This document shows positions 69 through 20,000 of a stretch of DNA of 20,000 nt, piece by piece. Numbering within the stretch: position 1 is the first letter of the stretch; each line of letters begins with the position of its first letter. Below the pieces are notes generated by a model. The model did not search any database. It saw nothing but the letters and a program-made list of their open reading frames with translations, and was not told the DNA's origin. The stretch is taken from assembly GCA_010015585.1 (NCBI GenBank), contig ML975153.1, one strand, 5' to 3'. Both the position numbers and the translations under genes were made by a program. Origin of the DNA: Eremomyces bilateralis CBS 781.70. Lineage: Eukaryota.

Positions 69-1454
69 ATGCGTACAGTTCACCCAGGACTCGCTCATCG
101 AGTATCCTCAGTTGTGACAGCAAGAAACTGCGCTATGGCGGCTTATTCATTTAAATATCATTTGGTTGGGGGTTATAAAGGTATATCAAGAGCTGCGTCG
201 TTCAGTGGAGCCCGGAATCCCGCTCCAAGGCAATCAAGACTTTCTTTCATTGCAGGGAAGCTTGTTCCCTTTTCAGCACACCAAATTCGCTGGTATATAG
301 AGGGGCAGAGGTTTGCATTTTCAACCGAGAACCTTCTACACTCCTCGAAATGCAAGATTGTTCTCCCGCCGGCGCGGCCTCTGGCTCTCCAATCCTACCA
401 AATCCGATGCACGGCGCTCTCCCCTCGACACCAGTCCACGGCTGCTCCTGCACACGGTTCCTCCCTTCCACCCTATCAACCACCGACCAATGGTCTTCTT
501 TCGGTCCTACCCCCATCCCTCATTCCCTACGCCGAGCTCATCCGCCTGGACAAGCCCACGGGGACCTACTATCTATTCTTTCCATGCCTCTTCAGCACCC
601 TCCTTGCCGCTCCCCTCGCCACCCCCATCACACCCCCCTCCACCGTCCTAGCAACGACGGCGCTTTTCGCTACCGGCGCTCTCATCATGCGTGGCGCGGG
701 TTGTACCATCAATGACCTCTGGGATCGGAATCTAGACCCACATGTCGCCCGTACGAGGCTCCGACCGATTGCTCGCCGTGCCATCACCCCGTTTCAAGGT
801 GTGGCCTTCTTCGGGGCGCAATGCCTTGCGGGATTAGGCGTCCTGGTGCAATTCCCCACGGAATGCTTATGGTACGGCATCCCCAGCCTGCTGCTCGTGG
901 GGACGTATCCGCTCGCCAAGCGGATCACGCACTATCCTCAGGTCGTCCTGGGCCTCGCATTCTCCTGGGGTGGAATCATGGGGTTCCCGGCGCTGGGGGT
1001 CGACTTGCTGTCGAATCCAAGTGCCCTCCATGCCGCCGCTGCATTGTATGCGAGTTGCGTGGCGTGGACCGTGGGGTACGACATGATCTACGCACATATG
1101 GATATCAAAGATGACAAAAAGGCGGGAATCAAGAGCATCGCGCTTCGCCACGAGAAGGAGACCAAGGGGGTGCTGACTGGCCTTGCCGCTGTGCAGGTCG
1201 GGCTATTGGGTGCCGCTGGTTGGGCCGTTGGCGCCGGTCCCATCTATTATCTTGGAACCTGTGGAGGTGCAGCAGCGACGATGGGCATTCAAATCATCAA
1301 AGTCAAATTGGACAGCGTTGCGGACTGCTGGTGGTGGTTCAAATGGGGTTGCTGGTTCACTGGAGGTGCGGTTACAACGGGGCTGCTTGGAGAGTACTTG
1401 GTGAGATTCAATGCTGAGGCGCATGAGAATCAGAAGCGAGAAACATCGTTTTGA
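69..1454 (+). CDS. COQ2: 4-hydroxybenzoate polyprenyltransferase (UbiA family), mitochondrial; start codon uncertain
   Basis: Uninterrupted ORF with Coq2/UbiA motifs RLDKPTG, RGAGCTINDLWDRNLD, RTRLRPIA, YPLAKR and YDMIYAHMDIKDD, plus several hydrophobic segments. In-frame ATGs occur only at 69 and 135 before 687, so the true N-terminus is unclear. Confidence 0.95.
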   Translation: MRTVHPGLAHRVSSVVTARNCAMAAYSFKYHLVGGYKGISRAASFSGARNPAPRQSRLSFIAGKLVPFSAHQIRWYIEGQRFAFSTENLLHSSKCKIVLPPARPLALQSYQIRCTALSPRHQSTAAPAHGSSLPPYQPPTNGLLSVLPPSLIPYAELIRLDKPTGTYYLFFPCLFSTLLAAPLATPITPPSTVLATTALFATGALIMRGAGCTINDLWDRNLDPHVARTRLRPIARRAITPFQGVAFFGAQCLAGLGVLVQFPTECLWYGIPSLLLVGTYPLAKRITHYPQVVLGLAFSWGGIMGFPALGVDLLSNPSALHAAAALYASCVAWTVGYDMIYAHMDIKDDKKAGIKSIALRHEKETKGVLTGLAAVQVGLLGAAGWAVGAGPIYYLGTCGGAAATMGIQIIKVKLDSVADCWWWFKWGCWFTGGAVTTGLLGEYLVRFNAEAHENQKRETSF

Positions 1455-1560
1455 ACTGTGTCTATAAATGTATAACATTGAGTATATTTCATCCATTTCC
1501 GCCATTCATATGCATTTTTTCATCACAATCATAAACCCAACATCGTGTGCACATGCTAAA

Positions 1561-3273
1561 TCAGACCCGAAGGGTGCGCAACTGCACCTCTTGAACCGGT
1601 GCTCTAGGTTCCATTTGTACGTCCATATCGTCCAAGAGACGTCCTCCTTCTTCATCTGTATTTCCGGCTGTCCTCTCAGACTCTTTCTTAACACTCAAGT
1701 CTTTTTTAACTGCCACGAAAATCGCCGATCCAAGGATCAAACTTGACCCTATAAGAGACAGAACTCCAGGCGTAGTACCAAATATGAGCTTGTCGAAGGT
1801 CAGTGCGAAGAGCATCTGCGTGTATGTCATATTGGTCGCACGCGAGGACTTTTCGTACTGCAGCCCGGCAGCGAGGAGGAATTGCTGATTGAACACGTTA
1901 GTGCAAGTGGGAAAGAATTCCAAATGTAAGACGAACCATGATAAACCCACAGGTCCCGAGAAAGATCAGATAGGACCAATCCCTCAGACTACTGGGAAGA
2001 AGAAAACCGACATCTGGAAGAGCCATCATCATCACGATGCTGACAAACGTGCACCAGGTAGCGAAGTAGTTGACGCTGATAAGTGGGTGCGCCCGCTTTC
2101 CAATCCACCGGATCGTGGTATATGCACAAGCTGCACCCAAGACACCAAGGAGTGACATCCCCACAGCGCTCGCCCGTTGAGCGGGAGTGACATCTTCATA
2201 GTTTCCTGCTTCGTGCCCACTGGAGGGCATGGCTGCTGTCCCGTTTGTGGTTATTGGAGAGACGTCTCCGTTCCCTGCGGCAGGGATTTCCGCTGTGTTG
2301 TGCGAGGGGAAGAAGAACGACGTTGGCCGAGCAATGAGGACGACCCCGATGAACGAGACTCCTGCCGCAATCTGTTCCAATCGAGTAAATGGCTCGTTTA
2401 TGAAGATGCTACATGCCCAGCATGCTATGCTTGGGGCTAGGAAAGTAATGACCGTAGCTTCGGCGAGAGGTAGGTAACGGAGGGAATCTGCTTCAGGATT
2501 AGGGCCGGAGAAGGTGATCGTACGCTCAACGTTTACATACAGTACTATTTCCTTGGTTAGCAAACACGTCATGGATGGTGAGGGCATGGCATACCATTCC
2601 AAAGACTCCAAAGAACCCTCCAATACCTCGAGCAATAAGAAGGCCTCGAACTTCTTTGGCTCCAAATGGGAAATGTGGGGTCCTAACCCAGTACATGTAT
2701 ATTGATGCGATTACTACGGTAATACTCATCCGTGCGAAGAGAATCTGTTAACCGGCTATCGTCAGAGCTGGGTATCGATCAGGAACCTCCATATCTATTA
2801 CGCACCTGGAATGGATGGAACCCTTTACCATTATTCCCCTCAATTTCTAAGAGTCGTGTCGTGACATTCATCAAGGTACCAAATATTTGCGCCAGTAACA
2901 CCAGCCCCAACCCCTTGTTTCTCACCCAGGATGCTTTCAATTTGTCTCGAATGGACTTGCTGTATCCTGAAGAGGCAGAACGTGTACCGTTAGCCTCCGG
3001 AGTTTCAGTCCACGCACCATGGTTCGGCTGAGATTCGTCGAATGAAAGGTTCGATATCGTATCTGGTGATTGAGAGCGGGGAAGGCCTGTTAAAGGAATG
3101 TTTAGGAATGTGTTCCCATCCTCAGTGGATTTCGGCAGGATCTTTGTGGAGGGGTCGACTGAAGAATGTCGAAAGAATGGGGACTTCACTCGTTGAATCC
3201 CGTTGCCCATGATTTCTGGACCTCCCTTCTCATTGTTTTCAGGTTCCGTCCCAGGTGGCGGAAATATAGTCAT
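1561..3273 (-). CDS. EamA / drug-metabolite transporter (DMT) family membrane protein, 5 exons
   Basis: Exons 3273-2806, 2744-2595, 2544-2541 (4 nt), 2487-1937 and 1884-1561. All introns are GT..AG with branch sites. The spliced product has EamA-type motifs (HPFQILFARM, LLIARGIGGFFGVFGMYYSLRYLPLAEATVITFLAP, GLQYEKSSRATNMTYTQMLFA) and many hydrophobic helices. Confidence 0.88.
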
Positions 3274-5640
3274 TGTGTTTCATTAGAGTCGACAACCAAA
3301 CGCCGAGTCTACTTCTATATCTCGCCGCAGACGAAGTGAAGACTCGATACCAAGAAGGAATAGCGATATAAGACGACTTTGAGGAAACCAGACTTGAAGA
3401 CTAACAGTCTACCTCAATATAAAGACCGACGGCATCAGAATTCAAAATTTGGCGTATGACAGATGTAGACGAAGAACAGAAGAAGACTCAGTCCAGTTGA
3501 AGGGTAGAGGTATCGAGTAAGCATTAGTTGCATTCGTAAGTACTAGAGTCCTCAGTCATGGTACTGGCGGAGTCCGCCCGCAATCGGCTTCCATTTGCGA
3601 GTCGAGGTTAGCCAGTCCCCGCCTCAACCGGGCCAATGAGAGCGGGGAAATAACACTGGATATGTGGGAGGAGTGAGCTGCATCGGTTCTTTAGGTTAGT
3701 TTTCTAGTTGATGGGGGGGATGGAATCCATCCAGTATGGTTGGGACGAAACTATTCCGCCGCTACGAGTGGAACTGCAGCCATGTCGTTTGCCGAACCCC
3801 CGAACGGTACGGGACGGGAAAGCCAACAGGAGCCTGATGGCTGAGCGGGGTTGGGGTTCTGTTTTTACTGCGGCAGCCGGGATTTGGTGACATTGGGCGG
3901 GTTGATGCAATAATAGCACGTGACTCCATCACACGGCCAGGCCGCCAGACAACCATAGACCTGAACCTCTGATTTCAGTGTGGTTTTTTGCAATACATTT
4001 ACGCATCATATTTTTGGGGAGAGGGTGTAGGTATGTCTTAGTAAGAAACTTAGTGTTGCATCAAATGGCTTTTCAGCTAGTCATATTGGCTTGTTACCTA
4101 TATCATTTAGTACTAAACTGCTAGAGTATTTTATTATCCAATCATATTAGTCCAACCACGATTTCACCTTTCTCCCCTCAGGCACAGTGAATTGAATAAT
4201 CAGAGAATCAGTGCTCCACAAGAGTCAGTTGCTTCCAGACGGTTATGTTTCTATTCGATCCTGCCCTCCTATTCTACATACGGATATTTTAAATGCGTCC
4301 CAATGATCGTTGCCGCTGATATTTGCCACTGATTTTCCTGCTCGAAAAAGCATCGATGCCGTAATAATATAGAACAGACCATCGGAGAATAGCATGCATA
4401 GGTAGAATCAGAAGAACAGGGTCTTATATTCACTACAGTAACTTCCTAGCTATTTAGCTGACCGAGAAGTGTTGGAGACAGCCCATGGACCTTCTCGACT
4501 GTCGCCTCTGACACCCGATCCGATTGATCAAAGTAGGCGGACAACTGACCTCCGTCCAAATAACGATGGGGTTCTCGACTTTCTAGATCTAGCCAAATCT
4601 CCTAAGAAAACCCGATGGCCCAATAGCTTGCAGATTGTTGCTGTAGGTTGACTCATCCCCATACTAGGCACTAAGTTCGGCTCCTGGCAGCTCCGTTGCA
4701 GAATGTTCTGTAAAGAATCCTACTCCTCCCCCAGGGACCACAAGTCATAGTGGTTTTCACTGAGGTACCCTCCTGTGTTCATCACCTAAACGACCAACCT
4801 CATCCTGAAGACCAGGTCTAATGAGACCGTTGGCCCTTTGGGCATAAGAATTGCTGTGTATAGACGTTACAGGGATTGTTTCAACCATAGCAGGCGAAAC
4901 ATCAGTCTCGTTCCCCCTTTTCAGGCGGTTTGGTCGTAGCGAAACCGTAAGAAAGCCTGCAATTCATCATAAAGGAACTCCGATCAGGTATATGCGGAGC
5001 CTCCACAGCAGGCAGACTGAATATTCGCATCTTGTGCAGGTATAACTGGCGCAGACATGAAATCCTTTCCACCCTCCACGCAGAAGAATTTAAAGTAGCT
5101 CCAGAATCTAGTGGTACTTCCTAGGGCTGCCTGAGTTGCGTGATGGACAATTCCGAGTGGTTGAGGAGACTTTTACCAGTAAAACAGTCAAAGCAGTCAA
5201 AACAGTGTGCGTCAAGAAAACGAAATTGGAGGTCGAAATAGTCCACATTGTTCAGACTTAGAGATCATCCGAAGCTCTTCTTTAAATTGACAAAGCTTTC
5301 AAATCTATGACTGGGAAGTGGATTGCATTGAGTAAAGGCCGGATGAGATGACCGAAGGACTAGAATTGCACGCCACTGAAACCTGAAGCGACAGAAAGCT
5401 AAGAAACTACATCATTTGTTAGCCTCAAGAGCTACAACTATGTGACAATGACACAATGTAAAGAGATGTATACAAGTTTTGAAAATGGAGAATTGGCAAG
5501 TTAACATGAGTGAACAAGACAGAACAGACGCCTAGGAGAGATCACGTGCTGTGGTGATCCAGGATGCATCGATTGAATGACCGCATCAAATCAATTATTT
5601 TGTATTTCTAATTCCACTGATATTCCACCATAACGTCGCC

Positions 5641-6239
5641 ATGTCTGCTATATCAATATTCTCATCCGTATGCACTATTCCTTTTGCAGCACTGAACCTA
5701 CAGAAAGTAACCATGCATCACAGGCCCTGCGGCAAACCGCCCGCCCAACCCGTCTCCTCACATCCCAACTCTCCCGACCGACATGGACTCCTTCCTTTTC
5801 CCGCCTCGCACCCCTTCAGGCCCGCCTCCTCTCCGACTCCACGAAACAAGCCATCAACCAAGCTGTGGCGACCTCGCCGGTCGTCTTGTTCATGAAAGGG
5901 ACGCCGGAAGCCCCGCAATGCGGCTACTCGCGCGCCTCGATCCAGATCCTGGGCCTCCAGGGCGTGGACCCTGCGAAGTTTACGGCGTTCAACGTCTTGG
6001 AGGACGAAGAGCTGCGGCAAGGTACGGAAGGAGTGCGCCATGCGTTTGGTCCGATGGAGTGCTAACGGTGCTTAGGTATCAAGGAGTACACGAACTGGCC
6101 GACGATCCCGCAGCTTTATTTGGAGAAGGAATTCGTGGGCGGTGCTGATATCGTCATGTCCATGCATCAGGACGGATCATTGGCGCAGCTTCTGGAGGAG
6201 AAGAAAGTCCTCGTCCCTGCAGAAGAGGAGAGCAAGTAG
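5641..6239 (+). CDS. GRX5: mitochondrial monothiol glutaredoxin (Grx5 type), 3 exons
   Basis: Exons 5641-5667, 5724-6021 and 6076-6239. Arg/Ser-rich presequence followed by [35 protein letters not shown] and EFVGGAD, which are class II glutaredoxin motifs. Confidence 0.93.
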
Positions 6240-6858
6240 CCTGGTCTCCGTATGGGCCGTACGCCCAGTGGAGTCGATGGTTCTACTTCTGTACAACATG
6301 TGTTGTATACGACGGATCTGTATGCTACGCGGGCTTCAATTTCTCAAACAGGCCACCATCCAATCTGCCGAATGACATCTTAGGAATATATTCTTCTAAA
6401 TGGATTGGAACGATGGGTTCAACACGCAGTGGCATAACTTCGGTTCATAAGGCTCAAGTCAGGTCTGGGGATATCAGATCGAGAAAGAACGATTCGAAGT
6501 CCTAATAGAAGCACGTAATCCTGAACAATAGTTGTCCCCAATGTGCTACAGTCTACCAACATTCGCGTATCGCTTGCCTTTTGCACCAATGAAAACCATT
6601 GCTCGCCAAACCAGGTCAAAGTGCGTCGTCTTCACTGTGCCGCGACAGAACCGCGGCGAAGAATACTGATGCATTCGTTCACACCGTCAATTAAGAATCC
6701 GAACCCACACGATCTCACCACGACACCGTCGCAATGAGGGGACGACAGCAGCGGGTACTCATAGCGCAATTCATCGGAACCTTTCCGAGATTCCGCAAGG
6801 AGAACTGACTCATAGGACACTTCCAAACTACCAAGGAGCCTTTCTGTTCACGTCCACT

Positions 6859-9746
<2,888 letters not shown>

Positions 9747-11621
9747 GACGACCGTTGGGTCGGATGGAATCCGAGTCGATTAGCGGAGGTCCAGATGAAG
9801 ATAGCGATGAGGAGAGATTCCCACAATCTCGGAGGACCCCGGCAACGATATGTGGAAGGAAAGCCTCAAGATGCGAGAGGCCGATGATGGAAGGAGAAAG
9901 TGCAACTCAGCACGACCACGTTCCCGTTCTGGTATTCCAGTGTGAGGGTGTCGTTGGAGGTGGAGCGAGCTGTGGAGGACGCACGAGGCCAAGGGTCGAT
10001 CGGAGCGACTGAAGGAGAGAACAAGCCGCCAGTCAGCCAGGGAACTCAGTTGGGACTTGGGACTTGGGGCTTGGCTTGAGAATGAGGTAGGTAAGTTGGC
10101 TAGTGCGCGTCGTGAGGAAGTGCTAACTGTGCTAAGGAACAAGCGCCTAGTGGCGACGTGGGTGAGTTTGACGGTGCAAAGTGGGCTGTGCAGCTGCCCG
10201 TCCAGGTGCTATTGATGTATTCGGGGCTGTATGTCGTATTATAGGTTCGTGGAAGGCCGTGACGAATTAATTAAGGCAGTGCCTGATATGGTCAGGTCGG
10301 TAGGGGACGACTCCTGACGAGGATTCGAACTTTTCCTCGAGTTTGCAGATGACGCTTTGGTGAGAGAGAAAAGGATGGAAAGTTGGTACTGTTCAGGTCC
10401 AGTTCCAGTTCGGCGGTTCAGAGGATCGGTGTAAGACTTCAAGTTCCCCGTCCCTCACACTCTCTACTTCTAAGAACCACCGAAACTGGGACTCGAGATG
10501 TCCTAATCGCAGGAGACATCAGTTGTCGCATGTCACTTGGATTTTGTGGTAGAAGTTATCCAATGGGAAAATGAAGAAGGTTATCAGAACAGAATCAGAT
10601 ATTGGTGGAAAAAGAGTTTATTTACTTGGGCAAGTACTTATCTCTACTCCGTACCTACTTATGTCCCAGACTCCCAGTTAACTTAAATACAGTAGCACTT
10701 ACTAAGATACGAAGATCAATAGCAGTGTGCCTAACGACCAGACCAATGAAAGCCGAGTTTTGCTTCTCGAGTATCCAGGCGCCTCTAATAATCCAGCTGC
10801 TGGATGGCGAGATGTAAGCAGTAAGCAGGCACTTTGATCGACCGTAGACCTCCATTTGTGGACGATGAAATTTCCACGTCCACAGAACAACTATTTTTAA
10901 TAAATCCATTGAAGTGAGAACCGAGAGGTGAGAAGTGAATTGGAGACCATCCGATGCCGGATTTCTCGTGGTGAGAGATCCATGCCATTCTTGTCTGTTG
11001 GGACTTCTGGAAACCGCTGGAAAGGGACTGTTCCGAACGCAGTACGTACGTATCGTTTTCGTATCCGGCCGCGAGTTAATGGATGCCCTACAGAGTAACG
11101 TTGAGTGCTACAGAAAAGACCTCCAAAAACGGAGGTTTCTGACGCCGTTTTCTGCGGTTTTTCCACCTAGGTGAAACGCCCTCGTTTCGTTACCAGCATT
11201 GCCCAAAACTCCCTGGCATTGTGCCAAGCCCTGCACACGCTCACCAAAGTCGGATCCCTACTTTGGTCCATCCAACCAGCCCAAACTTGGTGGGGGGCCG
11301 ATTTTGGACTTCCTGTTTTCAGTTTTTTGACCTTCGCAACTTCAATGCCTCCATGCTAATTTCGGAAGCATGGTTGGTGTCAAGCGATATGGCTCCGCTG
11401 CAGAGCCTTCCTCTGCTTTCGTATATAATAACAACCAATGTCCAGGCCCGTCGCTTGATGGATCGTTCCGTCGTGCCCGCTTGTCTTCTCTTCTCTTCCA
11501 TACTTGGGCCGTCGCTCTTTCACTCCTCCAGACGCATCTCCGTTAACCGGCTGCCTTTGGCTGAATTGCACTTCGCTCTCTTAGGCGACCGCTCTCTACA
11601 TCGAACTCCGAGACCATCGTA

Positions 11622-13946
11622 ATGGGAAGAGGAAACAAGTCGCGCCCCCGCGGCAAAAAAGATACGCCATGAGACTCTGCGTACTATGAATCGCTCTATG
11701 CCGACGATCTAACCCCAGCATTGCGCCCTATCACAGCCGCAACCGAGAGAGGAGTTGACTATGTGTGGAAGAAGTGGACAAAGTGTGTATTCGCTAGGAT
11801 TTCCCAAGTCTATCCATGACTGGCTGTCTATCCCTCTTTGATCAGATACTGTTCGCTCCGAGTCCTTAACCCGGATGCTCTTGACCGCCTGCGAAACATG
11901 AGCGTAGCCGAGATCCGGCGATTCATGCACTGGTATCTGGAAAATCATGCTATGACGAAGCTGAATTCCTTCTATGTGCTGATGCGTTACTGGCGGATGA
12001 TGTACGCTCGGAAGATATACCAAAGCCTAGACCTTGTCATCGCTTCGGATATGAAAGACGTAAGGCTGTGGTTCCGTCTAGAGACCGTCTCTAACAGCAT
12101 CGCTAAGGTATGGTTAGTTCATCGGCACCGTCCTTAAAAAGCGAGTACAGTTTGAGTGAGGGGATGAAAGAGAAGCCTGTCATGAACGTAGACGATGGGT
12201 ACCTGCTCCTATACCACCATTACGCGCTATCGAACGAATACTACGCACACGAGCGGGAGCGAGTTCAGCACAGTTTGATTATTCTCTTCATGATAGGCAC
12301 CTCTGCAAGGCCGTCGACGCTCGTCGAAGGGGGCGGCTACTACAACACAAACGAATGCCTTAAGTACAACGATATTGAGATATTCAAGGTTAGAGATCCA
12401 AACCTCCCCTCTCAACAAGTCTTTCTTATGAGAGTCCGGCTTCGGCTTCTCAAGGGCAAAAGAGACAAGGGCCTGCCGTAAGTATTCCATATCCTCTTGA
12501 GTTCACGTCGGCTAAGGTCATTAAGGATCAAGGTGGTGTTTTGTGAGCGAGACGATAATCTTGCTTTTTGCGCCATTCTGCAAGTTTTCGGGCTCGCCTT
12601 CGCAGATGACGCCTTCGACAGTGACTGGATCAAGCAGCCAAAGGACTTGTATACATTTTCGGTCCCACCTCACCTGCAAAGTGTGCAGCTACATTGGAAA
12701 GAGTCAATGCAGGACATTCCGATTTTCCGGCGATCTGTTTTTCGCGGCGGGCAGGCGACCATATCACCGAATAGATCGGTTCAGTACATGAATCTCTATT
12801 ACCAGAACGCGCGACTAGGTAAATCTGCTGGTTTTGCAGATCCTCTCGGGCTATACAGCTATCGTAGAGGCGCTGGTGAAGCGATTGATTGTAAGGGCAC
12901 ACTCTTACTCCTACGCTGGCAATCTTCTTACATCTGCGTGCTTCATAACGTTTTTGAGGCCTTCCTCGCTAACATCATTTCTAGGCGTAGCTGGTTCAGA
13001 TATGCGGAGCTTTATGATGGGCCATGCTCGTGCAAGTCTCTTTGAGCGCTATTATCGTAATAGCGTTGTCCAGCTCGATTCGGTATCCACGTTCCTCGAA
13101 GTGCCTTCCAGCGACGCGCTGATCAAACTGGCTGGGCATATGAGCTTGACCCGGGATCTCTCTGCGGCCGATTCCATCAACGTCGAGGATTCTGCGGTTG
13201 ACAGCGACCCTAGTATCCAAGAAATCGAAAAGACGTGCCTCCGGTTTCGGAAAGACCTCATTGAAACTTTTGGGAAGATCAAGAACGGAACGGGCACGGA
13301 GCTCTACGATACGTACCGGCGCGAGCGAAGCCATTTACGCAGCGAGAGGATTAAGGTAAAACGGGCGCTCGAGGAAGAAGCCCGGCAACAGTATTTCCGG
13401 ACCGCCGGGACTAGGTATATCGATGAACAGCGACGCGGCATCGCTCGTGAATATGTCGAACCGAAACCTATATTCCAATTCGAGGAACAGGAGAGGCTGG
13501 CAGCGCTCCTCTTCCAGAATCGAGATGTTCGGCAAGTATCTGAGGAAGAGATTTACGGGGTAGCGCATTGCAGCGATGGATAACCTAATCAGCTTATGCG
13601 GTCGGCATTTGCCCCGCCATGCGCCCCGTCGTCATCTCTCGTTGCGAGATAAATCTGTGGAAGAATACCGGAGGAGGATGAGAAAGATTTTGACCCCGAC
13701 CTCTTCCCTTTGGTGTGTCTGGGCACCCAATGCCTGTTCTGTCTCGGCAATCAGAGCCTAGGGCCACAGTCTAGAACCTTCGCATTTGCTCGAAAGGATG
13801 CTCTAAAGGATCACGTTGAGAAGCATTTACGCCACCACGACTGGTCGAAAGAGCCGGAATGCCCTCACCCGCTCTGCGAAGAGGCTTTGAGCACTGATAT
13901 GCACTTCAAGAACCATACGGCATGGGTTCACAACATTTTCTTGTAG
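11622..13946 (+). pseudogene. DUF3435 tyrosine recombinase (Starship captain), disrupted
   Basis: Exons 11622-11782, 11846-12059, 12118-12477, 12526-12890 and 12985-13946; the reconstructed protein is about 686 aa. Motifs: EKPVMNVDD, HERERVQ..I, GTSARP (catalytic R), LKGKR, YSYRRG, MMGH, FERYY (catalytic Y) and a C-terminal Cys/His region (QCLFCLG...DHVEKH...CPHPLC...NHTAWVH). Lesions: TGA at 11670-72, +1 in the A-run at 12136-40, +1 near 13557-62, -1 near 13653-67. Confidence 0.9.
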
Positions 13947-14390
13947 CGAAACTGCCAATGAAAACACTGTTCGGAAAGTCCTTGACTGCCAAGACACATC
14001 TGGAGCTTTGTTTCAACCTCCAGATGTGTCTTGGCATCACTCCAGTCTCTTGTCGCTCCACCTTTCCGTATCATTCCAGACTCCATGTTCCTACTTGCGT
14101 TGTCTCATGGGTGTACTGATTTGTATCACACCGATCTCCGAAAATGAGCTCAGACGCAGGCAACCTGAGCTTCAGAAAGATATGCATGAACGAGAAATGT
14201 CCAATTATGTTGGTGTCATGTACGGTTACGCCACTTGATACTCTGTTCTGTTGAGAGAGCGTCGGTGTGAGATACTCGAGCGACTGTGGAGCGGGAGTGC
14301 TTTCCTCGCGGATACATCAACCGCCGACATCCAATACTGGTGTCTGAACATCCTGGCGCTTGCAATTGCACATCCACCATCCTAACCATC

Positions 14391-15268
14391 ATGAAAGCGA
14401 GAATCATTCTTCTGGGCCTGCGTTTTGCAGCCTCAACTCTAGGAGCCTCGGCTCCCAAGGACGCTCCGGAAATCCTTCTTGCAGGACCACGACCTCCAGA
14501 GACCCCAAATCTTACTCCTCCGACAGGTGCTTCTTCGTTTTCGAAGCCGTACTGCATCTCCCAACCGCCCCAAGGTAGCTGCTATACCGCCAAAGTCTGC
14601 AACCAAGGGCCCGTAGATCTTAAACCGTGCGATAAATACACCGTCACTTATGACAAGCATGGAAATCCTCTGGAGGAGGAATTTACAATGAGTCCGAACC
14701 GTCCAAGATGTGGGAAACAAGCGAATGGTATCACCTGCGACCCGTAAGTTTGGCACTGCGTCTGATATTGAGAGGTTCTAACGCAGAAAGCCATAATGGA
14801 TGGGTAGTTGTTGTTCAGAGGATGGGTATTGTGGGAGCGACGAGTATATCTGCAGTATCAAGAAGAAATGTCCTGCTTGTCCCACTGAAGGTGGTTGTCA
14901 GTCAGGGGGTAACTACAATTTCACGCATCACCAGCTTTTTAGAGGCATAAATCAGATATCTAACTGTGAACCAGACTACTACCCACGGCCTCCGGAGACT
15001 TCTGAAAATAAATGCGGCCCACAGTTCGGTGGAAAGCTGTGTGATGTCCGTTTCAATACAGGACCATGCTGCTCAAAGGAAGGGTAAACCCGACCACCCC
15101 TTGAGGCAGAATTCCGCTGACCAGTGAATAGTGAATGCGGCTAAACGGCAATAGATATTGTGGGTCTTCTTCACAGCATTGCGGTACAGGGTGTCAGAAC
15201 GGGTTAGTCAACTCGCAAGACACAGAAGACGACAGATATTGATTTGCACAAGACTTTGTACCGCCTAG
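14391..15268 (+). pseudogene. secreted cysteine-rich protein with two hevein/CBM18 chitin-binding domains, in-frame stop
   Basis: Exons 14391-14743, 14787-15083, 15155-15202 and 15253-15268 (about 237 codons). Signal-peptide-like N-terminus MKARIILLGL..., then CG...C...CCSEDGYCGSDEYIC and CGPQFGGKLC...CCSKEGYCGSSSQHCGTGCQNGLC. TAA at 14794-96 is in frame under this splice model. Confidence 0.75.
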
Positions 15269-16869
15269 GAGGAATGCTGAGGGTTGTCCAGCATGAGCGG
15301 ATCTGCGGGAGCCTGCATATTAGATGATAGATCCATTGAGAAGCGCGGACGCGGACGGACCACACTTTCAGAATACCGAATCTCTGATTCCAAATTCAGG
15401 AACCGGTTTGGGCAGATTCCTGGAACAATGGTTGGCATCATGTTCTAGTTCGAGACCAAGACCGATGCCAGGGGCATTAACGAGGAAGCACATGGTGCGG
15501 GAAGTCGCTAGGCGACAGGATTGCTCAATGACATGACGTCAATCTAGGGGACCATTAATATGCAAGAAAGTCGTCATTGCTACTGCCATCCCCCCCGGTC
15601 CATCCATCAGAATTCTGGAAGCGATGCCACGACTTGGGTTTTGCCCAAACCACAGGAACATTCTGCCTCATTTCAAATCGATTATCAGACTGGTCCACGG
15701 TTTTAGGAGAGAAGCAAGTCCATTTCTGAGCATGTTTGTCAATTTTGCAGGTGCTCCATGACTTCTCGAACCTATTCAAATTCCTCCCGGAGTCAAAGCA
15801 CACGGCTCCGACGATAGCTTCATCTTTCGCGGTCGAGGCTATGAGGACTGCTTCGAGAATTTCTCAGCAGCACAATTGCTTGTGCATCGTGCTAAACTTT
15901 TGACTGGTTACAGAATCATATCAGCTTTTATTCCGAAGTGCGCGGACCGGTTGACGCTTACATGTGTCGACACAGCTGGCATCTCCGCTCCCGTTGCGGA
16001 CACAATTAACGTACTCTCGTTTCGTCGAAGCACACTGTTCCGAATTGGCGCAGTTTTTTAAACCGTCAGTGCTGTTGTCGGGACTTGGGGCGCAAGGTGC
16101 TCGTACCATATTCAAGACGACTTTTCAAACCCAGAGGATCCGACACTCCACCATCTGCGCCAGGAACTGCACCGCCCCTGTTCTCACTTGCGTTTCGATT
16201 CCCTCTAGGGCTACGGATCGCATCCTTCTGAGGTTTGGCATCCTTTCTGTTGACGCTTTTTTCCTCGTCGCTTTCCTGGGGCGAATGCGCGGGCGTACTC
16301 GTCGAGGCTCCTCCACGGAGTCCTATGCGTCTTGGATCGTTGGGCAGCATTTCGTTGTTTAGGCTCTAAACAGGCGTGCAGCAGTATGGAAGAGAGATGA
16401 TTGTAACGCGAAGGATCGGGTGGTTTCTTATGGACCATTGGAACGGAGAGGCTCGGGTAGTTAAGGCTTTCAGAGTTTGCATTATATGACATCTTAATGA
16501 TATATCCCTGATTTCCGGGTTTTTCGGCATCTATCATGAATAGAAAGGGAAGAAGTTTGATCATGTGCTACTGAGCGAACGAAATTGGCGTTGACATCCA
16601 GCTTTCATGCGGTCCCTGGAAATATACCAATGGTTTTACATGGAATACTGAATGAGATTTGAATTTGTTCGCATGATGTTTTATGGTAACGGCGCGCAAA
16701 TTCTGCCTGAACAGAAACGAGAGCGCCGACGATGCATGACGTCACAGATAGACAATCTGCTGACAGAGAGGCAAAGTCACTTCAGAGTTCAGAAGCACGA
16801 AGGTCTACCAAACCATTCCAATTCAGTCTATAGAAGGATTACTGCGGACTTCGTGTTCCTGTACTAAGG

Positions 16870-18171
16870 CAACTAAGCCAAAAGTCTGCGCACAGACCCC
16901 ATTCTCACCTGAATATCTCTACACCCACCCCTTACTTTGACAATCAATAACTTTACCAAAATGAGGTCTTTTGGCACAAAAATAAGTGGTAATCGAGGGC
17001 CTAATAAGGAGTTATCGGCCGCTTAAAGAGTTGGATTGTTCAGGCTGCTGAAGATGGGAAACCAAAGACTGAAATCGCGCGGAACTTTCGCGTCTCTAGA
17101 AGCGCGGTGCATGGGACTCTAGAGAGGTGGGAAGAACATCAAACCACTGTATCTTTACCCCGTGAAGGGTGTCCCCATAAGCTATCACGCCCTGACGAAC
17201 GGCATATCGTTCAAATCGCGCGTCGATTTCCTAAAATGGAGTATGGAGAGCTCCTCGCAGGTATTTTGTACCTCCGCATTTCTAGGAAGACTATCTACCG
17301 AACCCTTAAGAAATATCACCTTACGAAATGGCGAGCGAAGAAGAGGCCTTACCTGAAGCCCCACCACGCAAAAGACCGCCTCCAATTTGCCCACGAATTC
17401 CTTGAATTCGACTTCTCCCCGACCCACTCCATGGACGAGTGCTCGTATGAGAAGGGGGCGGGCGGTAAGCAGGTATGGGTATGGCGACTGTACCACGAGG
17501 CATATGATCCGCAAATGGTAGAGCCTAAGACCTCTGGCAAGGCCATTTCACAGATGATATGGGGCTCAATCTCGCGTGATGGGAGGTCAGGCCTGGTGAT
17601 CATGGACCGCGACGAAACCTCCGCAAGACAGGGCTATTCCGCGAAATCCTACATCGCTACGTTAGAGGAGGGACTTCTCCCTACGTACGAACCCGGGGAT
17701 ATTGTTATCCAGGATAACGCAAGGATCCATACGGCTAAAATCACCCAAGAATGGCTGGAGACGCACGGCATTTGGGTCATCGATTGGCCGGCCAATTCCC
17801 CAGACATCAACCCCATCGAGCATATATGGCATCTGTTGAAATCAAAGGTCCTAGAGCTGCACCCCGAATTGAAGACGATGGGCGCCTCGGAGGAGGCACG
17901 GGAGGCCATGAATGCGGCGTTAAAGGAGGCGTGGTGGGCGATCCCTCAGGAGACGACCCGAGAGCTGATCGACTCAATTCCGCGACGTCTACGGGCGGTA
18001 ATCAAGGGAAAAGGGTGGCATATGAAATATTAGATATTTCCCAATTAAGAAATCAAAAAAGTAGACTGAATTTGCATTTGTATGTGTTTTGCAGCGTATC
18101 TCAAGATACGGTGTATAGCGATTAGATTTGGTGATTTTCGGGGGTGTGTGCAGACATTTGTCTACTTAGTG
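16870..18171 (+). mobile_element. Tc1/mariner (Impala-like, DD34E) DNA transposon, about 1.3 kb
   Basis: The transposase is flanked by degenerate TIRs. Left about 16870-16900 is CAACTAAGCCAAAAGTCTGCGCACAGACCCC. Right 18140-18171, reverse-complemented, is CACTAAGTAGACAAATGTCTGCACACACCCCC, and TA follows at 18172-73. The left end is ragged, with ACTAAG duplicated. Confidence 0.85.
16961..18033 (+). pseudogene. Tc1-family transposase (DD34E), 1-nt frameshift near the 5' end
   Basis: ATG 16961 reads MRSFGTKISGNRGPNKELSA. One missing base near 17021-23 joins it to LKSWIVQAAEDGKPKTEIARNFRVSRSAV (HTH) and the 17107-18033 ORF. Catalytic motifs are MDE, QDNARIH and WPANSPDINPIE, with 34 residues between the second D and E. 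Confidence 0.9.
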
Positions 18172-18375
18172 TATCTTGAGCCATGATTTCGCCGTGTTTT
18201 GGGAGAGCTTGGCCTCTTCGCAAACATCTTTGAACGTTTTGCCTTTCGGTCAGTCGTCGTACGCTTGAAAAAACCGGGGTTTTTTGACTGTATCGTACTC
18301 CCGGCGCTTTATTTGCCTATCAGGAGTATGAGGGCGTTCCATACTGATAGGAAATAGTGGTGTTGGGCCGGCCCC

Positions 18376-18453
18376 CGGTTGACAAAAAAAGCGAGACTCA
18401 CAACAGGAACCCCGATTCCCACCAAAATCCTTAACTTTGGAGGCTTATATCTC
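18376..18453 (+). repeat. left TIR of MITE-like element
   Basis: CGGTTGACAAAAAAAGCGAGACTCACAACAGGAACCCC..., an inverted copy of 18736-18813. Confidence 0.9.
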
Positions 18454-18735
18454 TACGAAGAGTAAATAATATTTTATAAAATTAAATCACATCATTTAAA
18501 CTAACCCAAAAAGCTATTTTATAAAGATTTTAAATTTAAATAAACGTTATCTGTTAGTTATTTCTTGCCTACCTTTTAGCTTCAAGAAATTGATGTAGAA
18601 ACAGCCTACCTTAGGCGGCGCAAGACAATATCTCAGGACCTATATACAATTAAGATTCTAGAAAAGTAGAATATTATTAACTCGATACTCTGAACTTGTA
18701 TTTTAGCTTAAAGTAATTTAAAATAATTATTGGTT

Positions 18736-18813
18736 GAGTTATGAGCCTCCAAAGTCGAGGATTTTGGTGGGAATAGGGGTTCCTGTTGTGAGTCTCGCTT
18801 TTTTTGTCAACCG
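18736..18813 (-). repeat. right TIR of MITE-like element
   Basis: ...GGGGTTCCTGTTGTGAGTCTCGCTTTTTTTGTCAACCG, an inverted copy of 18376-18453. Confidence 0.9.
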
Positions 18814-19170
18814 CGTGGCCGGTTTGGTGGTTCTAGAGGTTTGGTATGGTATCCGACCGGGGCCAGGTTTTGGGTGGTTGGTGGGTGGGGTTGGGGTATT
18901 CAATTTCGTCCACCCCGGAGGCGGGTACGGAGGACAGTATCATGGCCTCCCGAAATGAGAACGTTGTGCTTATCAAATGATAGCGGTGACGTATATCTAG
19001 CAGCAATTGACCTGGTTTCATCGTCATTATGTTGTCATGGTTTGGACGACGATACATCATCGCGGCTCGCACAAGACATAAAAGAGCGGCTATGCCGAGG
19101 AGAGTACTGTTTCTTAACCCCAAAATACGTATTTGCGAACCTCTGTTAAACCAGACCAAAGCACGACACG

Positions 19171-19507
19171 ATGACTAGCAACCGGAATCCAGGAAATTTC
19201 GCCAATAGGTGGGTATTTTTATCGAATCGTTAACTGACTTCCACTAATGTTTTCACAGGCCTCAGGAGGAGGTTCAGGACATTGCCTCTGCAGGTGGCCA
19301 GGCAAGCCACTCTGGCGGATTCGCAAGCATGGATCCCGACAAGCAGGTTGGTGTTCTCCGTCTATGATCTATAGCAGGGTCAGTAGATGCTAAACACAAT
19401 TCCTCTAGCGCGACATTGCCTCCAAGGGCGGTCAAGCATCCTCCGGATCGTTTGAGAAGGGCAGTGAGAGAGCTAAAGAGGCTGGCGCCAAGGGAGGTTC
19501 CAAGTAA
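19171..19507 (+). CDS. con-10: conidiation-specific protein 10-like (KGG-repeat stress protein), 74 aa, 3 exons
   Basis: Exons 19171-19208, 19259-19346 and 19409-19507 give MTSNRNPGNFANRPQEEVQDIASAGGQASHSGGFASMDPDKQRDIASKGGQASSGSFEKGSERAKEAGAKGGSK*. NPGNFANRP, FASMDPDKQRDIASKGG and the KGG repeats are typical of CON-10. Confidence 0.92.
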
Positions 19508-20000
19508 ATAATTAGGCGACGAATCGCGATACCTTCAAAACAAAAGGGAAAAAGATACGTGACCGGTTATACAGTTAAACTTTGAAACACTTGAGACGGC
19601 TATAACTTAAAATCAACACCGTAATCGTTGAACCTAGCAACAGGCTTGGACGTTGTCACCGGTGTTGCAGGTAGATGGTCGATTCATTATGGTATAATCT
19701 TGCACTCGCAGTGTCCTGTGAGAAAACTCCGAGCATGCCCAGTAGATTTTCCTCGCTTTCGAAGGGTCCAGCCAGTTCCTTATTCATTGACTAGTACTGT
19801 GTGGGGTCAGAGTAATCCGGTCAAACCCCTGTTTTTTGTTGGATATCAACCATCCTCTAGTTACCTCAGCAAGCTCAGGCCATTGTGGTAGTGCCTGAGG
19901 CAACAAACCGCGCTATACCTAATTGGTATGGTCCTCGACCAAATAGCCTGAGGATCCTGTCATTGATTTTCGGCCTGAGTCGAGATCGTTTGTATGAGAG

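Follow-up and report, generated by a model that had tools for sequence, protein, structure and literature searches.

Does the broken recombinase gene beside an RSP5-type ubiquitin ligase in the fungus Eremomyces bilateralis CBS 781.70 mark the head of a giant transposon, and if so, where does that transposon begin and end? The locus was examined in a stretch of 20,000 nucleotides from contig ML975153.1 of GenBank assembly GCA_010015585.1, referred to below as the window. Its subject is a + strand gene of ~686 codons at 11622-13946, with five exons and four introns, for a DUF3435 tyrosine recombinase, the captain of the mobile elements known as Starships. Starships move tens to hundreds of kilobases (kb) within and between fungi, and ~95% of the recombinase genes are without a known element, which may reflect failed detection, decay, or a life without cargo. 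The stretch from 11088 to ~14036 is very probably the left (5′) end of a Starship-type insertion of the Tardis family in E. bilateralis. In the layout proposed here, the target-site-like repeat CTACAGAGTA would be followed by a leader and by the captain reading inward:

11088-11097, + strand: direct-repeat or target-site motif CTACAGAGTA where the element has its 5′ end
11089-11621, + strand: 5′ terminal or leader region (from contig alignment)
11622-13946, + strand: pseudogenised Tardis-family captain with a DUF3435 domain and a C-terminal twin C2H2-like finger (from Pfam, tblastn, splice sites, and RNA joints)
13947-14036, + strand: 3′ trailer, about where likeness to related copies ends (from depth bins, so that this limit has bin resolution only)
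14037-20000, no strand assigned: right flank, either cargo or host DNA

The left end of the element

Logan contigs of four sequencing runs (X1 to X4) were aligned to the whole window at 80% likeness. X1 and X2 are DNA runs. X3 was taken as RNA because it contains intron-like skips that are absent from the DNA runs and has zero depth in the bin at 4003-4669; no run is recorded as RNA. X4 represents a different species, in which a piece of the RSP5 gene carries 278 other letters and 24 gaps in 1577 and RSP5 is ~82% identical.

In all four runs, contigs were found that begin their match at 11089 and carry unrelated sequence before it (six in X1, six in X2, five in X3, and five in X4), and agreement of the flank before 11089 was only 0.43-0.51. 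The motif at this point is the sole exact CTACRGAGTA in the 20 kb, where 0.04 would be expected, and such a site was present in 9 of 200 shuffles. The Aspergillus fumigatus Starship paper gives the Tardis direct repeat as conserved and 9-11 bp long with the consensus CTACGGAGTA, and the predicted target site of Tardis h1, an element with a mean length of 81,743 bp, as TACGGAGTAG; CTACAGAGTA agrees with the former at 9 of 10 positions and with the latter at 8 of 10. A 9-11 bp repeat of the form (C)TACGGAGTA(G), typical of the ends of Tardis elements, is therefore present here at the 5′ end only. For CTACRGAGTA sites with one mismatch allowed, the expectation over both strands is 1.29 per window, and by our arithmetic the chance that such a site falls within 2 nt of an independently located boundary and on the correct strand is ~1.6e-4. 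Because the contig boundary and the repeat-like motif coincide, we take 11088/11089 to be a true Tardis-type 5′ end, sharp and with an inward-facing captain.

Two other candidates for a target site were set aside. The site GTACGGAGTA at 10645-10654 on the - strand, close to where the RSP5 RNA contig stops, is the only other one within one mismatch of the Tardis motif, a number at chance level for the window, and was rejected as a second direct repeat since it also lies on the wrong strand and the wrong side. A target in 5S ribosomal DNA or a tRNA gene was rejected as well, as the window contains no Rfam family and no tRNA.

From the element end to the captain ATG at 11622 (+ strand) is 533 bp with no gene between, and from the same end to the RSP5 RNA contig end at 10629 is ~460 bp. 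Within the leader, a segment of ~463 nt (11126-11588) is variable, and some copies do without it: two joints that each skip 463 nt, 11125>11589 and 11144>11608, were seen in X3 as well as in the DNA runs, and residues 7-25 of the annotated E. bilateralis paralogue P0001 match 11088-11153 before the alignment jumps to 11589. An intron at 11126-11588 was rejected, as its ends are not GT..AG. Copies without the segment have their end only ~70-100 bp before the ATG, and captain transcription in these may start from outside the element. Five X3 contigs extend across the 5′ ends of related copies and on into unrelated flank, and a copy in the second species that matches 11251-11955 retains the segment.

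The first ~110 bp (11089-11197) are the most repeated part of the locus, with 10 X1 contigs at 11199 as against three to five in the gene. An unlike letter at 11199 is carried by 10 contigs in X1 and by 11 in X4; ~11 contigs in the second species hold the first 110 bp, and four of them end their match at 11197. Element ends may outnumber captains, or these ends may be common to more diverged ships. Two copies of the heptamer CTACAGA, spaced by 20 nt, lie at the extreme end (11088-11094 and 11108-11114), and the pair may represent repeated half-sites for recombinase binding or may be due to chance.

The captain protein

Identification of the gene product as a Starship-type DUF3435 recombinase, made at first from the letters alone, was confirmed by Pfam and by a published listing. 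Three of the six ORF (open reading frame) fragments match PF11917 (12107-12481, E 4.5e-14; 12482-13045, E 5.2e-33; 12819-13583, E 3.5e-30); the matches are colinear, cover profile positions 2-404 of 418, and all lie above the 25.8-bit cut-off. Intact relatives match DUF3435 at E 1e-65 to 1e-111. No other Pfam family was found in seven of seven scanned relatives or in the window fragments, and this includes GCR1_C and the chromodomain.

The ordered catalytic motifs named in the sequence-only reading (SARP, LKGKR, YSYRRG, MGH, and RYY) retain their residues in the window copy, namely R (SARP), K (LKGKR), Y..RR, H (MGH), and Y (ERYY), and these are invariant or nearly so across an alignment of 14 proteins. 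The zinc-finger-like Cys/His region that it placed at the C-terminus aligns, in the same 14 proteins, as two C2H2-like fingers (C-x2-4-C...H-x3-4-H units), and comparison of the family profile with finger domains gave weak matches to WT1, YY1, and TFIIIA (E 0.007-0.7). The fold was examined on the intact relative P0005 rather than on the window protein. Its AlphaFold model (mean predicted local distance difference test, pLDDT, 68.9; predicted template modelling score, pTM, 0.40) had Cre recombinase as its best Foldseek match (E 7e-4, probability 1.0, template modelling score only 0.16-0.30), followed by XerA, Tn1549 integrase, XerH, an integron recombinase, and lambda integrase. The captain is a Cre-like tyrosine recombinase composed of a core-binding domain, a DUF3435 catalytic domain with the set R-K-Y/H-R-H-Y, and a twin C2H2-like finger. 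A HMMER scan returned 1060 representatives at E <= 1e-3, 51 of them at E <= 1e-30, and ten of the best matches, taken by name, belong to Histoplasma, Blastomyces, Teratosphaeria, Orbilia, and a number of fungi associated with lichens.

Placement of the captain in a family has a published answer. The starfish paper (PMC11162782) includes this genome as 'erebil1'. Its Table S3 lists a 'tyr' gene, erebil1_447870, at erebil1_scaffold5 1105199-1108054 on the + strand; Table S4 assigns it to fam03, with erebil1_192051 as the 50% representative, and puts the genes of three further E. bilateralis models (P0001, P0002, and P0004) in fam03 likewise; and Table 1 identifies family 3 as Tardis. The four fam03 genes lie on four scaffolds, and the four captains differ by 8-16% in protein. 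Table S8 of the same paper gives 15 recombinases and 0 elements for erebil1, the one genome for the species. The suggestion of a possibly uncatalogued Starship consequently holds in part: the recombinase is already catalogued, and an element around erebil1_447870 is not.

Gene structure and state of decay

The exons were defined on the + strand by comparison with the paralogues P0001 and P0002:

11622-11782, + strand: captain exon 1
11846-12059, + strand: captain exon 2
12118-12477, + strand: captain exon 3
12526-12890, + strand: captain exon 4
12985-13946, + strand: captain exon 5

Summed, these exons give 2062 nt and, with the net +1 from indels, 686 codons, in agreement with the protein of ~686 amino acids (aa) first obtained by splicing five exons. 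The introns measure 63, 58, 48, and 94 nt, and all four have GT..AG ends. Introns 12060-12117, 12478-12525, and 12891-12984 were seen as exact GT..AG skips in X3 contigs, and the acceptor of intron 1 (11845/11846) is used by a transcript of a diverged paralogue. With P0001 and P0002 as tblastn queries, matches tile 11589/11622-13943 in frames 3, 2, and 3.

Four gene models of E. bilateralis CBS 781.70, each on a contig of its own, are the nearest database proteins: P0001 (655 aa), P0002 (670 aa), P0003 (443 aa), and P0004 (429 aa). P0003 is the deposited model of the window's own gene; it spans 12110-13580, which is the middle of the gene only, uses two introns, and is 100% identical to the window in its second block. 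Identity of the captain, taken piecewise, was 572/619 with P0001, 520/622 with P0002, and 317/579 with a protein of Geoglossum simile.

Stop-to-stop ORFs on the + strand cut the captain gene into pieces across 11622-13946. Part of this six-fragment break-up has an ordinary cause, the stops at 11817-11819 and 12479-12481 being intronic; the remainder reflects five genuine lesions (nonsense codons in two cases and 1-bp frameshifts in three), all located by paralogue comparison and the last also by contig alignment:

11670-11672, + strand: lesion 1, in-frame TGA in place of the Arg of the paralogues
12136-12140, + strand: lesion 2, extra A and +1 frameshift, with a run of five A as against four in an expressed paralogue
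13557-13560, + strand: lesion 3, extra G in a G run
13561-13563, + strand: lesion 4, TAG where the paralogues have Gln
13664/13665, + strand: lesion 5, -1 frameshift, the paralogues having an extra G after 13664

Lesion 1 is supported by an independent contig of 590 nt over 11129-11718 with 0 differences from the window, and lesion 2 by a paralogue transcript that stays in frame across the joint at 12137. The deposited model P0003 stops at lesions 3 and 4 (13557-13563). No intact, potentially active captain reading frame is thus present, interrupted as it is by nonsense codons and frameshifts. Repeat-induced point mutation (RIP) was rejected as the cause of decay: no RIP signature was found, and the indices of the element (TpA/ApT 0.73; (CpA+TpG)/(ApC+GpT) 1.19) resemble those of the flanks.

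The window copy is still transcribed, as an X3 contig over 13494-14743 has 0 differences from it and spans three of the lesions. With two stops and three frameshifts in its reading frame, the window captain cannot make a recombinase, and the copy is for that reason non-autonomous and unable to move by itself. The other three annotated fam03 copies look impaired as well, to judge from their gene models rather than from the DNA of the copies. P0001 lacks the stretch that bears the catalytic Lys in the 14-protein alignment, P0004 begins inside the DUF3435 domain, and P0002 reads through introns to an early stop. Mobilisation in trans within the E. bilateralis genome is therefore doubtful. A 155-nt skip, 12455>12611, was observed in a related copy in the DNA runs only and lies inside the stretch missing from P0001; it would belong to the copy that encodes P0001, and the annotated P0001 protein probably comes from a damaged copy too.

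Extent of the related copies

Summed depth in X1 was flat at ~165 over 668-10672, rose to 710-991 over 10673-14007, and returned to 184-202 over 14008-16675, an excess of 4.3-6 times the flank followed by 1.1-1.2 times. The drop is abrupt, from 974.6 in the bin 13341-14007 to 202.1 in the bin 14008-14674, with 183.8 further right. Summed depth is not copy number, and a plainer measure is the number of distinct X1 contigs with an unlike letter, which was 10 at 11199, 8 at 11630, 5 at 11737, and 3 at 13079. From the depth excess we estimate that likeness between copies ends ~50-90 bp past the stop codon, so that related copies share only ~2.9 kb, from 11089 to ~14030.

A hairpin with 22-nt arms (13987-14008 and 14015-14036, 95% complementary, 6-nt loop) lies where copy likeness ends. 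One RNA contig matches from 13987 only and another to 14036 only, and both are unrelated outside, so that this 50-nt palindrome is also found in the setting of a different transcript.

The RSP5 neighbour and the second species

The housekeeping gene to the left was defined as follows:

6500-10629 (start approximate), - strand: RSP5/NEDD4-type HECT E3 ubiquitin ligase, with three WW domains (E 1.5e-36) and a HECT domain (E 3.1e-22)

Eight CT..AC intron skips were seen in X3, and an RNA contig extends to 10629. RSP5 reads away from the element, and the captain is accordingly divergent from it, as had been proposed.

In the second species, a 29-kb contig of X4 keeps the order UbiA-glutaredoxin-RSP5 and continues for ~8.9 kb beyond RSP5. 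Among the matches listed, this contig has neither a captain nor a match to the right flank, and its intergenic DNA is unalignable. The homologue of 14377-14912 (87 other letters and 15 gaps in 536) lies on a different contig, with ~44 kb on the RSP5-ward side that contain no RSP5 among the matches listed, and the captain homologues are, with the same limit, on other contigs again. X4 gives no cover over 10006-10672, 12007-12673, and 15342-16675, and these intervals were not counted as evidence. An insertion or rearrangement at the RSP5 flank is real, since neither the captain nor the downstream gene stands beside RSP5 in the second species. As the right neighbours of RSP5 differ from those in the relative, a large insertion fits, and an ordinary rearrangement at ~82% identity fits too.

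The right side of the window

Beyond the trailer, 14037-16675 is single-copy and 19344-20000 is repeated. Two features were defined between them or at their margin:

14391-15087, no strand assigned: putatively secreted Cys-rich ORF pair with a weak Chitin_bind_1 Pfam match (E 0.0063)
16676-18676, no strand assigned: Tc1/mariner copy with an open 341-aa ORF at 17008-18033 (DDE_3, HTH_Tnp_Tc3_2, and HTH_23)

The ORFs at 14391-15087 have a hydrophobic N-terminal stretch, a putative signal peptide, and Cys-rich hevein-like CCS..G.CG motifs. For the ORF at 14391-14747, no protein relative was found among proteins of 208-2000 aa; a DNA homologue of the 14391-15087 region is present on another contig in the second species. 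The Tc1/mariner copy has a depth 9-35 times the flank in X1, also appears in X3, and has a diverged form in the second species. Just past it, an inverted repeat with 84-nt arms (18376-18459 and 18730-18813, 92% complementary, 270 nt apart) may be a foldback element or one resembling a miniature inverted-repeat transposable element; a contig of 386 nt over 18402-18787 has about twice the single-copy depth.

Searches for genes that accompany Starship captains found no DUF3723, ferric reductase, patatin, or NLR gene in 14.0-20.0 kb, where two of five ORFs of at least 90 aa matched other families. None of 29 further ORFs had a Pfam family match. Such accessory genes are common in Starships without being required.

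Weighing of the explanations

For captains of the Tardis family, the reported activity is cleavage and rejoining of DNA at a (C)TACGGAGTA(G)-like site and transfer of the captain along with the DNA between the two repeats. In the history favoured here, an element would have integrated ~460 bp upstream of the RSP5 transcript, by a mechanism extrapolated from published work on Starship captains, and its captain would since have decayed through two stops and three frameshifts. Several points weigh against placing a Tardis-type end at this locus. The boundary was drawn from assembled Logan contigs, not from raw reads, and X1 and X2 may be the source data of the window assembly itself. The R at motif position 5 was permitted after inspection of the sequence, the Tardis repeat is known from Eurotiomycetes and the host is a Dothideomycete, and the Tardis (fam03) assignment is that of a published table and not of a tree of our own. 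No second direct repeat was found in the window, where sites with at most two mismatches number 18 against 20.3 expected, and 13947-20000 holds no direct or inverted copy of the terminus 11088-11140 (scores 12 and 11, null 12.1 +/- 1.4). Finally, no element is known for 10,212 of the 10,771 such recombinases in the starfish survey. Since no second terminus was found, the element is defined at one end only.

Whether the locus is mobile DNA at all may be questioned on the grounds that database relatives bear generic names (FluG domain-containing, C2H2-type domain-containing) and that the family is transcribed, as would suit a host gene family that happens to be duplicated. We regard this as extremely improbable: the copies share a sharp end with unrelated flanks and the boundary motif matches a known Starship target, the full recombinase catalytic set is present, the window copy carries five disabling lesions, and the copy behind P0001 lacks the catalytic Lys region. 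The confinement of raised depth to 11089-~14030 suits a compact, cargo-less transposon of 2.5-2.9 kb (repeat, leader, captain, and short trailer) that multiplied by itself in the manner of a Crypton, with a Starship-type recombinase, in two related species. The distinct unlike-letter contigs at 11199, 11630, 11737, and 13079, the ~11 contigs with the first 110 bp in the second species, and the transcription and splicing of copies are also in keeping with it, and since the smallest published Starship in PMC11162782 measures 15,020 bp, such a unit would be unrecorded there. It is nevertheless unlikely. A + strand TACRGAGTA-like repeat is lacking at 13947-14100, even with two mismatches, and is equally lacking over the wider range 13563-16313; the 3′ limit comes from depth bins, not from listed contig ends; and four captains that differ by 8-16% would fit four different ships equally well.

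A further choice concerns the DNA to the right of 14.0 kb, and that a large element with surviving cargo extends there has a little under an even chance. The sequence-only reading took everything on this side as cargo, a claim that found no direct support: 13947-20000 contains no second repeat or terminus and no Starship accessory genes, and the related copies share ~2.9 kb. A complete but immobilised giant Starship would run from 11088 off the right end of the window (>8.9 kb), with the Cys-rich gene and the Tc1/mariner copy as cargo or passengers, and we give this somewhat less than even weight. The captain at a true 5′ end and facing inward is as it should be, the lack of a 3′ repeat in the window would place the other end beyond it, and Tardis h1, at a mean of 81,743 bp according to the A. 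fumigatus paper, is far from small; the right flank is gene-poor with transposons, and X4 retains UbiA-glutaredoxin-RSP5 with different neighbours for RSP5. Against this stand an unseen other end, the missing DUF3723, ferric reductase, patatin, and NLR genes in the 6 kb rightward, and the fact that the downstream gene and RSP5 differ from their X4 homologues to about the same degree, which fits vertical descent; a plain rearrangement could explain the synteny break at ~82% RSP5 identity. Alternatively, only the 5′ end and captain are left as a relic, cargo and 3′ end having been deleted or rearranged away, and host DNA resumes at ~14.04 kb. This reading, to which we give slightly less weight than to the giant element, accounts for the depth of 4.3-6 times the flank to 14007 and 1.1-1.2 times thereafter, for the lack of a 3′ repeat or terminus and of accessory genes, and for the heavy decay of the captain, and most such recombinases are 'solo'. 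Starship cargo is, however, expected to differ even among related captains according to PMC11162782, hence loss of similarity after the gene is no proof of missing cargo, and the right flank is not the neighbour of RSP5 in the second species.

Meaning and comparison with known systems

On the reading of 11088 to ~14036 as a Tardis-family left end, the locus supplies a base-precise left end for a 'solo' recombinase gene. The long Tardis target motif was described from Aspergillus and further Eurotiomycetes, and its nearly unaltered use in a distantly related Dothideomycete makes target recognition testable; the twin C2H2-like finger would be the obvious candidate reader of the motif. If the compact unit were true, a Starship-family recombinase would be acting as a Crypton-like transposon, and this would be one answer for the ~95% of 'solo' genes. 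In other respects the locus is ordinary: the gene is catalogued, it is dead, and there is no evident adaptive cargo.

The closest comparison is with Tardis h1 of A. fumigatus (fam03, clade 1), which belongs to the same family by published classification and not by sequence comparison. Its captain likewise lies at the 5′ end and reads inward, and its repeat CTACGGAGTA and target site TACGGAGTAG are comparable to CTACAGAGTA here. The differences are that Tardis h1 resides in a Eurotiomycete and measures ~81.7 kb, whereas the present element has a Dothideomycete host (Eremomycetales) and a pseudogenised captain, and only one of its ends has been seen. The 'solo' Starship recombinases (10,212 of 10,771) resemble this locus in being DUF3435 genes without an annotated element; unlike them, it has a 5′ end known to the base, with a family-typical repeat. 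Starship Wallaby of Penicillium, as described in PMC11162782, has at its head a pseudogenised captain with premature stops, as here, and differs in having known boundaries and cargo.

CryptonF elements of fungi are tyrosine-recombinase DNA transposons that measure a few kb, contain introns, and end in short direct repeats rather than inverted termini, and the 2.9-kb unit found here is of similar size. CryptonF carries a GCR1_C DNA-binding domain, whereas the captain here and seven of seven relatives have DUF3435 alone in Pfam, with a C2H2-like tail; Starship recombinases, moreover, form a group of their own that is rooted by Cryptons. Kirc, the captain of Enterprise in Podospora, combines DUF3435 with a zinc-finger region, as does the captain of E. 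bilateralis, and differs from it in belonging to family 6 of clade 2 and in having a central finger and a C-terminal chromodomain.

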